A stretch of DNA of 64,000 nt. It comes from Escherichia coli. GTDB lineage: Bacteria; Pseudomonadota; Gammaproteobacteria; Enterobacterales; Enterobacteriaceae. Positions 1 to 9,388 of this stretch are shown here, one piece after another. The translations under genes and the position numbers were made by a program. The stretch lies in NCBI RefSeq assembly GCF_003334815.1, contig NZ_QOWO01000006.1; one strand, written 5' to 3'. The stretch's first letter is position 1. Each line of letters begins with the position of its first letter. The notes below the pieces were generated by a model. It was not told the origin of the DNA. It was given only the letters and a program-made list of their open reading frames with translations, and did not search any database.

Positions 1-72
1 CAGAAGTGAAACGCCGTAGCGCCGATGGTAGTGTGGGGTCTCCCCATGCGAGAGTAGGGAACTGCCAGGCAT
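1..72 (+). rRNA. rrf: 5S ribosomal RNA, 3' 72 nt (5' part lies outside the window)
   Basis: Sequence ...GCCGATGGTAGTGTGGGGTCTCCCCATGCGAGAGTAGGGAACTGCCAGGCAT matches the 3' end of E. coli 5S rRNA as recalled; a terminator hairpin follows. Confidence 0.93.
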
Positions 73-84
73 CAAATTATGCGA

Positions 85-111
85 AAGGCCATCCTGACGG
101 ATGGCCTTTTT
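85..111 (+). terminator. rrn operon intrinsic terminator
   Basis: Inverted repeat GGCCATCC/GGATGGCC with 4-nt loop followed by TTTTT immediately after the 5S 3' end. Confidence 0.75.
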
Positions 112-395
112 GCATTGGCGCAGAAAAAAATGCCTGATGCGACGCTGCGCGTCTTATACTCCCACATATGCCAGATTCAGCAACGGATACGGCTTCCCCA
201 ACTTGCCCACTTCCATACGTGTCCTCCTTACCAGAAATTTATCCTTAAGCTCCTCAATAACCATTTTCCTGCTAACTAAATTCATGGTTAAGGTTGCATA
301 ATGATATGCAACAAATGTATAACATTTCCTTTACCAAAAAAAATAAACAAAAGCGACCGACAAAAGCATCGGATTACGGCAGGAGACATAATGGC

Positions 396-6987: not shown

Positions 6988-7407
6988 TTAAAGAGATTCG
7001 TTCAGCCAGCTATCGAACGGCGCTTTCGGTACTGCGCCATTAAGCATGTCGACAACCTGACCGTTTTTGAAAATCATGATCGTCGGTATACTACGAATTC
7101 CAAAGCGACTGCTCAATTCACGTTCAGCTTCGGTATTCACTTTCACAAAGCGCACTTTACCGCTACGCTCTTGCGCGACATCTTCAAAAATTGGTGCGAA
7201 ATTACGGCAGGGGCCGCACCACGGTGCCCAGAAGTCGATCACCACAGGTAGATCATCCTTCAGCAATTTGTCGAGTGTTTCACCGGTCGCATTAATCACC
7301 TCTCCGTCAAACAAGTCGTGACCGCAGCGTCCGCATTTTGCCGCATCTTCGATCCGATCGTCGGGAATGCGATTGATGGCCTGACAATGGGTACAAACGG
7401 TATTCAT
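6988..7407 (-). CDS. trxC: thioredoxin 2 (N-terminal zinc-finger CxxC pairs + WCGPC active site)
   Basis: 139-aa [20 protein letters not shown]...[11 protein letters not shown] matches TrxC. Confidence 0.95.
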
Positions 7408-7613
7408 AACTAACCTCGGGATGAGTAAGGAGACTTATCGGCAACGACGCCGGTATGTTTCTAATATGTTACATATTATCGGGGACATTGTTCCAGACAA
7501 CAATCTGTTTTATTCAATAGGTATGATAGTCGCAGGCTTTGGTACGAAATCATGGCGAACCGCGCGGACTTCGGGTAATCTGCGCGCTTCGCGCAGCGCT
7601 GGTGGAGAAAAGC

Positions 7614-8651
7614 ATGAACGATGAAATGAAAGGTAAAAGCGGCAAGGTCAAAGTGATGTATGTCCGCAGTGATGATGATTCTGATAAACGTACCCACAAC
7701 CCGCGTACCGGGAAAGGGGGCGGGCGTCCAGGAAAATCTCGTGCTGACGGTGGCCGTCGCCCCGCCCGCGATGACAAACAGAGTCAGCCCCGTGACCGCA
7801 AGTGGGAAGATTCGCCGTGGCGCACGGTTTCCCGCGCGCCGGGTGATGAGACGCCGGAAAAGGCCGATCACGGTGGCATCAGTGGTAAAAGTTTTATTGA
7901 TCCGGAAGTGTTGCGTCGTCAGCGTGCGGAAGAAACCCGCGTCTACGGCGAAAATGCATGTCAGGCACTTTTCCAGAGCCGTCCGGAAGCGATTGTTCGC
8001 GCCTGGTTTATCCAGAGTGTAACGCCGCGTTTTAAAGAAGCTTTGCGCTGGATGGCAGCAAACCGCAAAGCGTACCATGTGGTGGATGAAGCGGAATTGA
8101 CAAAAGCGTCAGGCACGGAACATCACGGCGGCGTTTGCTTCTTGATCAAAAAGCGTAACGGTACAACCGTGCAGCAGTGGGTAAGCCAGGCAGGCGCGCA
8201 GGATTGCGTTCTGGCACTGGAAAACGAATCTAACCCGCATAACCTGGGTGGCATGATGCGCAGCTGCGCGCACTTCGGCGTGAAAGGTGTCGTGGTGCAG
8301 GATGCGGCACTGCTGGAGTCGGGGGCGGCTATCCGTACCGCAGAAGGCGGCGCAGAGCACGTTCAGCCGATTACTGGCGACAACATTGTTAACGTGCTGG
8401 ATGATTTCCGTCAGGCAGGTTACACCGTAGTGACCACTTCCAGCGAGCAGGGTAAACCGCTGTTCAAAACTAGTCTGCCAGCGAAAATGGTACTGGTGCT
8501 GGGTCAGGAATATGAAGGGTTACCGGATGCCGCACGCGATCCGAACGATCTGCGCGTGAAGATTGACGGTACGGGCAACGTTGCCGGGCTGAATATCTCT
8601 GTCGCAACCGGCGTTTTGCTTGGTGAATGGTGGCGTCAGAATAAAGCCTGA
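7614..8651 (+). CDS. yfiF: SpoU/TrmH-family RNA 2'-O-methyltransferase with basic low-complexity N-terminal extension
   Basis: Track ORF 7539..8651 trimmed to ATG 7614 ([14 protein letters not shown]..., 345 aa) matching YfiF as recalled; SPOUT-like C-terminal domain. Confidence 0.88.
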
Positions 8652-8698
8652 TAAATCAGCCGGGTGGCAACTCTGCCATCCGGCATTTCCCCGCAAAT

Positions 8699-9388
8699 TT
8701 ACTCACTCTCTGCCGGTAATACTGGCATCCAGTCAATCGGCGTCTCGCCACGTTGTTCCAGCCACTGATTTGCCAGCACAAAATGGTTGCAGCCAAAGAA
8801 TCCACGATGCGCCGAAAGCGGCGACGGATGCGGTGCTTTCAGTACATGATGGCGTTGCTTATCTATAATCGCCCCTTTCTTTTGCGCATGCGATCCCCAC
8901 AACAAAAACACCACGCCTTCGCGATGCTGGTTAATCAGGCTGATCACTTTATCGGTGAAGGTTTCCCAGCCGAGGCTGGCGTGGGAATGCGCCTGACCTG
9001 CGCGTACCGTCAACACAGTATTGAGTAGCAGAACGCCCTGACGCGCCCAGCTTTCAAGATAACCATGATTAGGGCGGGTGAAGCCCGGAATAGTATTTTC
9101 CAGCTCTTTATACATATTCAATAATGACGGAGGAATGGCAATGCCGGGACGAACGGAAAATGCCAGACCATGCGCCTGTCCCGGTCCGTGATAAGGATCC
9201 TGGCCGAGAATCACCACTTTAACGTCACCCAACTCTGTAAAGCGGAACGCGTTAAAGACATCTTTTTGTGGTGGGTAGATAGTGACGCCGGACTGCCGCT
9301 CGCTGGCGACGGTCTGAAGGGTATTAAGAAAATAGGGTTGCTGCTTCTCTTCAGCCAGCACGTCATGCCAGGTTAATTCGTTAGCCAT
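8699..9388 (-). CDS. ung: uracil-DNA glycosylase
   Basis: 229-aa [23 protein letters not shown]...[14 protein letters not shown] matches Ung. Confidence 0.97.

Follow-up and report, generated by a model that had tools for sequence, protein, structure and literature searches.

The charged N-terminal tail of Escherichia coli YfiF is conserved in blocks, predicted to be disordered and a candidate RNA-docking arm

Introduction

RlmB (YjfH) is the 23S rRNA Gm2251 2'-O-methyltransferase (PDB 1GZ0) and shares with YfiF the L30e-like plus SPOUT architecture and the motif positions; unlike YfiF, it has no N-terminal tail, with RlmB residue 13 pairing with YfiF residue 108. In a 2007 classification, the COG0566B paralogue YfiF was placed as the outcome of a gammaproteobacterial RlmB duplication, and a positively charged, presumably disordered extension of YfiF was described, a feature also noted in eukaryotic proteins of COG0566B and COG0566C (Tkaczuk et al., 2007, BMC Bioinformatics 8:73; PMC1829167). 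The YfiF tail has been known since then and is not new; where that paper treats it, the tail is described without dissection into parts, and the paper still listed four unassigned sites of 2'-O-methylation.

YfiF binds RNA in vivo, with rRNA, tRNA, csrB/C, arrS, chiX and its own mRNA recovered by OOPS and iCLIP (PMC11066096, 2024). In that work YfiF is listed with uncharacterised RNA-binding proteins that bind RNA differently in exponential and stationary phase, yfiF deletion slows growth, and STRING-db predicts Rne, Rnr, RluC and PhoL among the interaction partners of YfiF; iCLIP used full-length tagged YfiF, and the paper mentions neither disorder nor truncation. Ribosomal proteins and rRNA-modification enzymes co-purify with YfiF (PMC3384335), which is also enriched with RNase E in large cross-linked particles (a 'BR body' table row; PMC13106914) and was recovered in a pull-down of the prolyl isomerase FkpB (PMC7353009). 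A reading of this DNA from its letters alone (hereafter the sequence-only reading) took the methylation target of YfiF to be not established, and the titles and abstracts of 28 papers mentioning yfiF agree in naming none; no substrate or methylation activity is reported in the portions of the yfiF literature that concern the protein (PMC11066096; PMC1829167).

Here, we describe the yfiF tail in a window of 64,000 nucleotides (the whole stretch of DNA analysed, from E. coli contig NZ_QOWO01000006.1), adding to the earlier description a block/spacer/block anatomy, selection measurements, an [ST]PW motif and the C-terminal tails found in other lineages.

Results

The ORF list and translation identify E. 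coli yfiF as a gene of 345 codons plus stop (Table 1). A 1,301-nt query (7400-8700) agrees at 100% identity with the region annotated as yfiF ('tRNA/rRNA methyltransferase', WP_000997403.1) and was matched in 5,426 of 5,426 complete E. coli genomes, with at least 80% of the query covered in 5,425. The translation matches the YfiF equivalog (NCBIfam NF008117 / PRK10864) at 667.6 bits against a cut-off of 267, and profile positions 1-344 pair with residues 1-345, so the tail is part of the profile itself. Pfam, this equivalog profile and structural matches agree with the initial assignment of YfiF as a SpoU/TrmH-type SPOUT methyltransferase. An antisense ORF (7476-8078, minus strand) and a +2-frame ORF (7660-8022) over the tail were dismissed as by-products of GC- and Arg-rich coding because selection tracks the yfiF frame.

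Table 1. Features of the yfiF locus, with positions in the window
Feature	Position	Strand	Basis
Conserved leader or promoter region, outside the tail	7549..7613	+	Per-base conservation mostly 90-100%, 79 orthologues
Shine-Dalgarno GGAG, 6 nt upstream of ATG 7614	7604..7607	+	Read from sequence
yfiF coding sequence	7614..8651	+	ORF list, translation, RefSeq WP_000997403.1, NF008117
Whole predicted disordered N-terminal tail, aa 1-96	7614..7901	+	Pfam-blank, AF2, composition
Block A1, aa 1-18, net +3; sole hydrophobic patch of the tail	7614..7667	+	Orthologue conservation, translation
Acidic patch, aa 19-25 (SDDDSDK), net -3	7668..7688	+	Charge; amino-acid conservation 0.68-0.92
Basic Gly/Arg/Pro segment, aa 26-52, net +8	7689..7769	+	Composition, conservation
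Hypervariable Arg/Asp spacer, aa 53-66	7770..7811	+	Length variation, dN/dS, codon diversity
SPW motif, aa 67-76	7812..7841	+	Conservation in 79 orthologues
Acidic linker, aa 77-96, net -3, with a conserved motif inside	7842..7901	+	Orthologue alignment
First predicted helix, aa 97-106, leading into the L30e-like domain	7902..7931	+	AF2
SpoU_sub_bind (L30e-like) RNA-binding domain, aa 110-181	7941..8156	+	Pfam PF08032, E = 1.2e-14
SPOUT (SpoU_methylase) catalytic domain, aa 199-336	8208..8621	+	Pfam PF00588, E = 1.6e-31

The SpoU_sub_bind domain lies directly N-terminal to the SPOUT domain, which is the architecture of the RlmB/YfiF group (COG0566B), and the PF00588 match spans model positions 3-141 of 142. 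All three SpoU motifs can be read in the translation: motif 1 (N-x-x-N-x-G-x-x-x-R) at aa 207-216, motif 2 (G-x-E-x-x-G) as GQEYEG at aa 297-302 and motif 3 (L-N-x-S-x-A) as LNISVA at aa 326-331. Across 64 sequences, positions N207, P208, R216 and N327 are invariant and G297, E299 and S329 nearly so, from which YfiF is likely to be catalytically competent. Motif 2 is missing from the Orbaceae-like homologues P0157, P0164, P0175 and P0229.

In an AlphaFold2 (AF2) monomer model built on a 64-sequence alignment, the core has a pLDDT of ~86-98 and, as a monomer and by superposition only, overlays the knotted SPOUT structures 1gz0, 9h1k and 1x7p. The top Foldseek match is RlmB 1gz0 (E = 3e-20; target-normalised TM 0.74-0.77), whose two domains superpose on YfiF over 243-247 columns and which is also the best PDB sequence match (E = 2.7e-19, YfiF aa 108-342 only). 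Two-domain structural neighbours with assigned substrates are nearly all large-subunit rRNA 2'-O-methyltransferases (RlmB, RlmR, YsgA, TsnR, NHR, AviRb, MRM3). YfiF was rejected as an RlmB equivalog, scoring 117.8 bits on TIGR00186 (cut-off 160.15) and 92 bits on NF008386 (cut-off 366); judged by these missed curated cut-offs, YfiF should not be labelled RlmB. At the helix that precedes the L30e-like domain the pLDDT climbs to 65 and then 86, and R101, R102, Q103, R104, E106 and E107 are invariant among 79 Enterobacterales orthologues, the sample that also underlies the residue conservation and codon-position diversity of the tail given below.

The ~95-residue extension that the sequence-only reading placed at 7614-7900 coincides with the tail, and the peptide it quoted falls exactly at aa 6-88 (nt 7629-7877) of the ORF opened by ATG 7614. 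A Pfam search of aa 1-109 returned no domain, and the sole profile covering this region is YfiF's own equivalog; a known domain within the tail was rejected on these grounds. Charged residues make up 42% of aa 1-96 (11 K, 12 R, 13 D, 4 E; core charged fraction 0.21) and Gly 14%, while aa 1-95 hold 23 K+R, 16 D+E and 13 G for a net charge of +7. The residues I, L, M, F, V, W and Y account for 13 of 95 tail residues (14%) versus 71 of 238 in the core, and the commonest residues over aa 1-107 are R (14%), D (12%), G (12%) and K (10%). The description of the extension as basic, Gly/Arg/Asp-rich and highly charged was correct in each respect (net +7, charged fraction 0.42, with R, D and G the top residues). 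The 23-26 basic residues are countered by 16-20 acidic ones, which holds the net charge to just +6 to +7, and by this composition the tail is a polyampholyte rather than a classical polycationic RNA-binding tail.

Disorder was also predicted, as the same reading had supposed: mean pLDDT is 41-50 in each 10-residue block of aa 1-90, and the AF2 model has no secondary structure before helix 97-106. The tail thus combines a lack of predicted structure with charge, Gly/Pro enrichment and hydrophobic depletion. The AF2 monomer gave no confident contact between tail and core, with the whole tail at low confidence and pLDDT below 50 at aa 10-23 and 67-76; the acidic linker is still of low confidence, and the segments below 50 include aa 87-92. 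The term 'low-complexity' fits in part. Mean 12-mer entropy is 2.75 bits in the tail versus 3.01 in the core, and aa 53-66 drifts as such sequence would, but ~80% of the tail consists of conserved blocks under purifying selection, and an entropy of at most 2.2 bits is confined to two 12-residue windows, which begin at aa 30 and aa 43.

A strongly conserved block lies on each side of the spacer, aa 1-52 before it and aa 67-107 after it (dN/dS 0.02-0.30). By region, dN/dS is 0.04-0.28 for aa 1-50, 0.02-0.30 for aa 66-107 and 0.03-0.15 for the core, and diversity at the first, second and third codon positions is 0.18/0.17/0.56 for aa 20-52, 0.15/0.12/0.48 for aa 67-107 and 0.15/0.09/0.49 for the core. 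Within block A1, K8, K11, V12, V14, M15, V17 and R18 are identical in 79 of 79 orthologues, KV+VMYVR is retained in Sodalis, Symbiopectobacterium and metagenomic homologues, and synonymous variation is suppressed too. The basic segment aa 26-52 supplies most of the net positive charge of the tail and contains its only strictly low-complexity windows; N29, P30, R31, T32, G33, K34, G35, R43, R49 and R52 are at least 94% conserved there, with high synonymous entropy. In the SPW motif, S67, P68, W69 and S73 are 100% conserved and R70, T71, R74 and P76 97-99%, and the codon entropy of S67 is 1.99 bits despite its complete residue conservation. The spacer ranges from 13 to 59 residues (sd 9.7 versus 0.5 for the core), carries (RDDRK)n and (DRPRx)n repeats in Enterobacter, Klebsiella and Lelliottia, and is near-neutral, with dN/dS of 0.36-1.35 and codon-position diversity of 0.47/0.49/0.66.

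A Shine-Dalgarno-like motif is present at -16..-4 in 73 of 79 orthologues, and the start ATG is kept in 76 of 80; the other four are Klebsiella loci that match from residue 2 and have an ATG two codons upstream. No in-frame start codon occurs between codons 15 and 99 of yfiF, and no Shine-Dalgarno-like sequence precedes GTG 7908 or TTG 7911 (codons 99 and 100, just ahead of the folded domain). Changes in tail length among orthologues are all frame-preserving, and the 3-nt periodicity of tail variation equals that of the core. Translation is therefore placed at ATG 7614 from the conserved Shine-Dalgarno sequence and ATG, the absence of starts at codons 15-99 and the coding-type conservation of the tail. 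A start past the tail, which would have undone the sequence-only reading, is ruled out by codon-level conservation through aa 20-107. Some gene callers choose M15 (331-aa entries P0037, P0038 and P0113); residues 2-14 are conserved, yet synonymous change is suppressed there, and the sequence alone is compatible with an M15 start. Together these data show a tail that is translated, modular, under purifying selection and predicted to be disordered.

The yfiF leader carries a GGTAATCTGCGCGC box. A structured RNA element in the leader was considered and rejected: its sequence conservation is real, but an Rfam search of the leader and 5' coding region (E <= 1) came back empty, shuffled sequences reach a minimum free energy at least as good as that of 7535-7680 (z = +0.45), and RNAalifold returned a 4-bp GC hairpin only, with no compensatory changes. 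A sigma-70 promoter scan of 7350-8750 gave nothing at the tool's threshold.

Among 125 near-full-length representatives of the wider YfiF clade, 65 are extended by at least 40 aa at the N-terminus and 20 by at least 30 aa at the C-terminus, 14 of the latter without an N-terminal tail. The C-terminal tails are almost all basic, G/P/R-rich and hydrophobic-poor, and their sequences are unrelated to the YfiF N-terminal tail apart from [ST]PW. Since the basic tail is N-terminal in some members and C-terminal in others, the recurring trait is the basic disordered region and not its position. Of 61 distant YfiF-clade tails, 11 contain [ST]PW where 0.56 would be expected (20-fold), a count reached in 0 of 2000 shuffles in a test that takes no account of relatedness among the tails; [ST]PW also occurs in one C-terminal tail (P0219). 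Homologues without the tail, for which a search had been proposed at the outset, do exist, for example Bacteriovoracaceae P0188, which is truly tail-less, with a stop codon 3 codons upstream of its start; from such sequences, the catalytic module is evidently able to work without the tail. The distant tail-bearing homologues were rejected as RlmB orthologues, as 30 of 30 tested score higher on the YfiF model and 0 of 30 reach the RlmB cut-off.

Discussion

We consider it somewhat probable that the tail (aa 1-96) is a translated, disordered RNA- or ribosome-docking arm on an RlmB-type 2'-O-ribose methyltransferase. This reading is favoured because a basic tail recurs in the clade, [ST]PW is enriched, YfiF binds rRNA, tRNA and sRNAs and co-purifies with ribosomal proteins, and its two-domain structural neighbours with assigned substrates are nearly all rRNA methyltransferases, and from it we infer that RNA or ribosome binding is located in the tail itself. 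In the proposed mechanism, aa 26-52 and aa 1-18 would provide long-range, largely sequence-independent electrostatic capture of large structured RNA, such as rRNA or pre-50S particles, tRNA and sRNAs. The near-invariant short motifs would become ordered only upon binding a specific RNA or protein surface, with the single buried-type Trp as a stacking or anchoring residue, and the spacer would be a length-tolerant linker joining the two motif blocks. The arm would place the L30e-like and SPOUT domains, with their catalytic motifs intact, on the substrate. To our knowledge, all known constitutive 2'-O-methylations of E. coli rRNA and tRNA have assigned enzymes, which leaves a classical substrate-recruitment role without a known substrate, and YfiF belongs to the last few SPOUT methyltransferase homologues of E. 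coli to which no target has been assigned.

Against a docking arm for RNA, the motif conservation fits a protein partner equally well. The tail may instead be mainly a protein-protein docking or localisation module (for the RNase E scaffold, PhoL, RluB/C or a ribosomal protein) or serve partitioning into RNP bodies, with RNA contact secondary, which we regard as a minority possibility. Near-invariant short motifs with one Trp amid disorder are typical of protein-binding linear motifs, and the 'BR body' enrichment with RNase E, the STRING-db partners Rne, Rnr, RluC and PhoL and the FkpB pull-down point the same way. Polyampholyte disordered regions can promote condensates, and the alternating R/D blocks and repeats of the tail resemble such sequences. 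However, the interaction data are all high-throughput, with none mapped to the tail, co-purification with RNase E or ribosomal proteins could be RNA-bridged, and the C-terminal tails, unrelated outside [ST]PW, better match generic charge than a single conserved interface.

Of similarly low likelihood is a tail that is no generic charged tether but a bipartite docking device built of portable motifs, a strand-like KV+VMYVR and [ST]PW-x(1-3)-[RK], which would engage a specific site on a pre-50S particle or on an RNase E-associated complex. YfiF would then be at least in part a non-catalytic ribosome-associated factor, and the leader with the first 19 codons could be the self-mRNA iCLIP site of an autoregulatory loop. 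Under such portability, the Trp element would sit in an N- or a C-terminal tail and the motifs would be kept where SAM-binding motif 2 has decayed.

A regulatory tail is unlikely. It could be an autoinhibitory or stability element whose acidic patches lie on basic L30e-like or SPOUT surfaces, or a growth-phase-linked, protease-sensitive degron; the discrete acidic patches (aa 19-25 and aa 77-96) do alternate with basic ones, and RNA binding by YfiF shifts with growth phase (PMC11066096). However, the AF2 model contains no predicted intramolecular contact, a net-basic tail is a poor RNA mimic, and the conservation of the Trp motif is left unexplained. AAA+ proteases commonly enter at disordered termini, and a terminus such as this one could be an entry point of that kind.

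Still less likely is that the tail is neutral low-complexity sequence from replication slippage, tolerated on the enzyme. Its length range, tandem repeats and dN/dS suit the spacer to this origin, and tail-less relatives exist, but aa 1-52 and 67-107 (~80% of the tail) have many residues invariant across 79 species at dN/dS of 0.02-0.30, and they vary mainly at third codon positions, in a pattern that cannot be told apart from the catalytic core. Neutrality is refuted by dN/dS and codon-position diversity for aa 1-52 and 67-96 and stands just for aa 53-66. Finally, that no tail is produced and the upstream ORF was annotated in error, with the true start at GTG 7908, TTG 7911 or M15, is very improbable given the conserved ATG with GGAG at 7614, the lack of a Shine-Dalgarno-like sequence before the downstream codons, residues that stay fixed while codons vary across aa 20-107 (for example S67), and the periodicity and in-frame length changes described above.

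As an observation, the YfiF tail is a textbook-type feature that opens no new question alone. If it steers YfiF to an RNA or ribosomal substrate, as the docking-arm reading holds, the tail is a natural starting point for the target search, and the block/spacer/block map and the SPW motif offer precise targets for mutagenesis.

The mitochondrial enzymes MRM1/Pet56 and MRM3/RNMTL1 are RlmB-family proteins that, like YfiF, place long N-terminal extensions ahead of an L30e-like plus SPOUT core, with N-terminal regions of 209-241 residues tabulated for MRM1/MRM3 in a review (PMC9508554). The YfiF model structurally matches MRM3 dimers and trypanosome homologues on mitoribosomal large-subunit assembly intermediates (7oi6, 9hcd, 6yxx/6yxy); no sequence similarity was detected between the mitochondrial extensions and the YfiF tail, and the rRNA targets of these enzymes, unlike that of YfiF, are known. 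Mitochondrial RlmB-family extensions include mitochondrial targeting sequences. In bacteria, ribosomal-protein tails, the C-terminal extensions of RhlE, DeaD and SrmB and the Arg-rich segments of RNase E are charged, Gly/Arg-rich and hydrophobic-poor, and on their own such extensions are disordered; they raise RNA affinity or tether a catalytic module. Compared with these basic extensions, the YfiF tail is a polyampholyte of net charge +6 to +7, is unusually conserved and has a Trp-centred motif, and the likeness is drawn as an analogy.

Description

The interval 7400-8700, which holds the yfiF ORF, is 100% identical to the annotated E. coli yfiF region ('tRNA/rRNA methyltransferase', WP_000997403.1) and has a match in every one of the 5,426 complete genomes of E. 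coli that were searched, spanning at least 80% of the query in 5,425 of them. A Pfam search found no domain in YfiF aa 1-109, and the alignment of the E. coli paralogue RlmB, a 23S rRNA 2'-O-methyltransferase (PDB 1gz0), is confined to aa 108-342, so YfiF has an N-terminal part that its closest paralogue lacks. Conserved residues of the three SPOUT motif regions (N207, P208, R216; G297, E299; N327, S329) are invariant or nearly so. A sequence-only reading had described a basic, Gly/Arg/Asp-rich extension of about 95 residues at 7614-7900; composition counts and domain limits bear out both description and coordinates, and the peptide it quoted matches aa 6-88 exactly. Aa 1-95 contain 23 K+R, 16 D+E and 13 G (net charge +7) and just 13 I/L/M/F/V/W/Y in total, and the charged fraction is 0.42 in the tail (aa 1-96) versus 0.21 in the core (the L30e-like and SPOUT domains). 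The label 'low-complexity' holds locally, in two stretches of 12 residues that begin at aa 30 and aa 43 and have an entropy of 2.2 bits or less, and fails for the remainder. The probable disorder was checked with AlphaFold2 (64-sequence alignment), which gives a pLDDT of 41-50 in each 10-residue block of aa 1-90, with the core at about 86-98, and places no secondary structure before the helix at aa 97-106. As a feature, the tail has been in print since 2007, when Tkaczuk et al. (PMC1829167, in passages) classed YfiF as a paralogue of RlmB in the gammaproteobacteria and noted its positively charged, presumably disordered extension. Such a tail is ordinary for RNA-handling enzymes.

Coordinates and properties of yfiF, its surroundings and its protein segments
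Feature	Window nt	Strand	YfiF aa	Net charge	Remarks
trxC	6988-7407	-			upstream neighbour
AT-rich block	7500-7532				conserved
yfiF leader	7549-7613				trxC-yfiF intergenic, ~65 nt
GC hairpin	7580-7596				within nearly invariant leader stretch, immediately 5' of SD
yfiF ORF	7614-8651	+			345 codons
Codons 1-19	7614-7670	+	1-19		synonymous variation suppressed
Hydrophobic segment			1-18	+3	sole hydrophobic patch of tail; nearly invariant
Acidic patch			19-25	-3	SDDDSDK
Basic segment			26-52	+8	bulk of net positive charge; NPRTGKG and RRPxR conserved
Arg/Asp spacer	7770-7811	+	53-66	-1	hypervariable
SPW motif			67-76	+2	essentially invariant
Acidic linker			77-96	-3	contains a conserved 12-residue stretch
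First helix			97-106	about 0	leads into L30e-like domain
SpoU_sub_bind			110-181		Pfam
SpoU_methylase			199-336		Pfam
ung	8699-9388	-			downstream neighbour

The titles and abstracts of 28 papers that mention yfiF, and passages from eight of them, name no methylation target, in line with the earlier statement that none is established. YfiF is listed among co-purifiers of ribosomal proteins and rRNA-modification enzymes (Sergiev et al., 2012; PMC3384335, passage), and in passages of a 2024 OOPS and iCLIP study (PMC11066096) it binds rRNA, tRNA, csrB/C, arrS, chiX and its own mRNA, and its deletion slows growth; an rRNA or tRNA methyltransferase role is the authors' hypothesis, with no target demonstrated there, and the paper does not mention disorder or truncation of YfiF. 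The reading we favour, with moderate confidence, is that the tail is a disordered docking arm, and we infer that it is the binding element of YfiF. Its basic Gly/Arg segment would capture large RNAs by long-range electrostatics, its invariant short motifs, including a single anchoring Trp, would become ordered on a specific RNA or protein surface, and the Arg/Asp spacer would act as a length-tolerant linker. A mainly protein-docking or condensate-localising role, for which the enrichment of YfiF with RNase E in large particles speaks (PMC13106914, passage), is rather unlikely, and an autoinhibitory element or degron is improbable.

The tail is modular, and the detail of its anatomy is new here. 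Spacer length varies between 13 and 59 residues across orthologues, and dN/dS there is 0.36-1.35. Because variability sits in this segment, about four-fifths of the tail is conserved motif sequence and not drifting low complexity; neutral low complexity is valid for aa 53-66 only and very improbable as an account of the tail. Tandem pentapeptide-type repeats (RDDRK and DRPRx) occur in the spacers of Enterobacter, Lelliottia and Klebsiella, and GGRSxGRRSDD-like units in Pantoea (orthologous loci L013, L015, L070, L071 and L074, at ~2650-2830 in locus coordinates); the expansion looks, from these repeats, like slippage-driven length polymorphism within an otherwise conserved tail. In two E. coli database entries, P0113 and P0121 (331 and 289 aa), a portion of the tail is translated in the +2 frame with respect to yfiF (7660-8022), after which the usual frame resumes; they reflect frameshift variation or sequencing error inside the tail-coding region, and a GGGGG run at ~7716-7720 is close by. 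Rare in-frame deletion variants (P0040, 318 aa; P0041, 311 aa) lack parts of aa 71-123.

Conservation was assessed in 79 orthologues from Enterobacterales, retrieved together with their DNA. A GGAG sits 6 nt ahead of the ATG at 7614, and the in-frame start codons beyond codon 1 are codons 5, 14 and 15, then only 99 and 100, neither preceded by an SD. The start ATG is kept in 76/80 orthologous loci and an SD-like motif in 73/79; the four loci outside the ATG count are from Klebsiella, in which the match starts at residue 2 and an ATG is present two codons upstream. All length differences are frame-preserving. For codon positions 1/2/3, nucleotide diversity in aa 20-52 is 0.18/0.17/0.56 and in aa 67-107 it is 0.15/0.12/0.48, the pattern also found in the catalytic core (0.15/0.09/0.49). 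Amino acids such as S67 stay 100% conserved despite free codon variation (codon entropy 1.99 bits at S67). In pairwise comparison with E. coli, dN/dS is 0.04-0.28 over aa 1-50, 0.02-0.30 over aa 66-107 and 0.03-0.15 in the core. By this comparative evidence the tail is translated, and purifying selection acts on its protein sequence. An untranslated tail is hardly credible: a downstream start, named beforehand as the refutation, is contradicted by the conserved SD and ATG, the preserved frame, the codon-position diversity and dN/dS. Identity, charge, predicted disorder and translation evidence together support the cautious sequence-only reading of the tail as a whole.

Searching 1.84 billion cluster representatives yielded 355 matches at E <= 1e-30, and tails were surveyed in 125 near-full-length representatives out of the best 150. 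N-terminal extensions of at least 40 residues occur in 65/125, no extension at either end in 46, and C-terminal extensions of at least 30 residues in 20, nearly all basic, Gly/Pro/Arg-rich and hydrophobic-poor; 14 of these 20 have no N-terminal tail. Basic tails thus recur at either terminus. At the DNA level, P0188 (Bacteriovoracaceae) proved genuinely tail-less, an in-frame stop lying 3 codons ahead of its start, and P0150 truly lacks the N-terminal tail and has a basic C-terminal tail of 72 residues. That the surveyed homologues are RlmB proper was rejected in favour of a YfiF-like clade, since all 30 representatives classified score higher with the YfiF equivalog profile NF008117 than with the models for RlmB, whose cut-off no representative reaches. 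The SPW motif (S67, P68, W69) appears as [ST]PW in 11/61 distant tails (core <60% identical to the E. coli core; expected 0.56 ± 0.72; 0/2000 shuffles reach 11), an enrichment that is indicative and not a probability because shuffling ignores shared ancestry. Carriers include Symbiopectobacterium, Zophobihabitans (Orbaceae) and Pseudoalteromonas; P0219 has it in a C-terminal tail, and in the Sodalis representative its position is taken by a degenerate TPW or APY. Four Orbaceae-like proteins, P0157 (Zophobihabitans entericus) and the metagenomic P0164, P0175 and P0229, have lost SPOUT motif 2 (VLGQEYEGL -> V(F/I)FQQ---VN) and retain a long, charged, SPW-bearing tail, which hints at catalytically inactive YfiF-like proteins keeping the docking arm.

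Upstream of yfiF, the conserved AT-rich block reads AACAATCTGTTTTATTCAATAGGTATGATAGTC and has two ATAG elements ~10 nt apart. It looks like the region to which OxyR would bind in the divergent trxC promoter, itself regulated by OxyR. The leader is mostly 90-100% conserved in DNA across 79 Enterobacterales species and consists of a ATGGCTAA-like box, ~14 nt of variable sequence and a nearly invariant ATCrGGTAATCTkCGCGCTTCGCGCAGCGCTGGTGGAGA, with no Rfam match, excess folding energy or covariation. A promoter (two boxes, variable spacer) with a 5' hairpin is one possible reading of the leader, and the place where YfiF binds its own mRNA in iCLIP (PMC11066096) is another. In a Dub-seq study (PMC6338753, passage), fragments carrying yfiF and trxC together had a synergistic fitness effect on potassium acetate, and its authors suspected a contribution from the intergenic region. 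Within codons ~1-19, third-position diversity is 0.23 versus about 0.5 in the rest of the gene, and major-codon frequency is 0.87-0.97 at S9, G10, V12, K13, V14, V17, R18 and S19; dS over codons 1-50 is 2-12 times below the core in most close comparisons (E. albertii, Salmonella, one Citrobacter, Enterobacter, Klebsiella, Pseudescherichia). This pattern suggests nucleotide-level constraint on codons 1-19, as a translation-initiation region or regulatory site, continuous with the conserved leader.

The anatomy of the tail provides concrete handles, of modest value, for experiments on an orphan enzyme. RlmB is the top structural match of the YfiF model, followed by the two-domain large-subunit rRNA 2'-O-methyltransferases RlmR, YsgA, TsnR, NHR and AviRb, and MRM3 in complex with intermediates of mitoribosome assembly is also among the matches.
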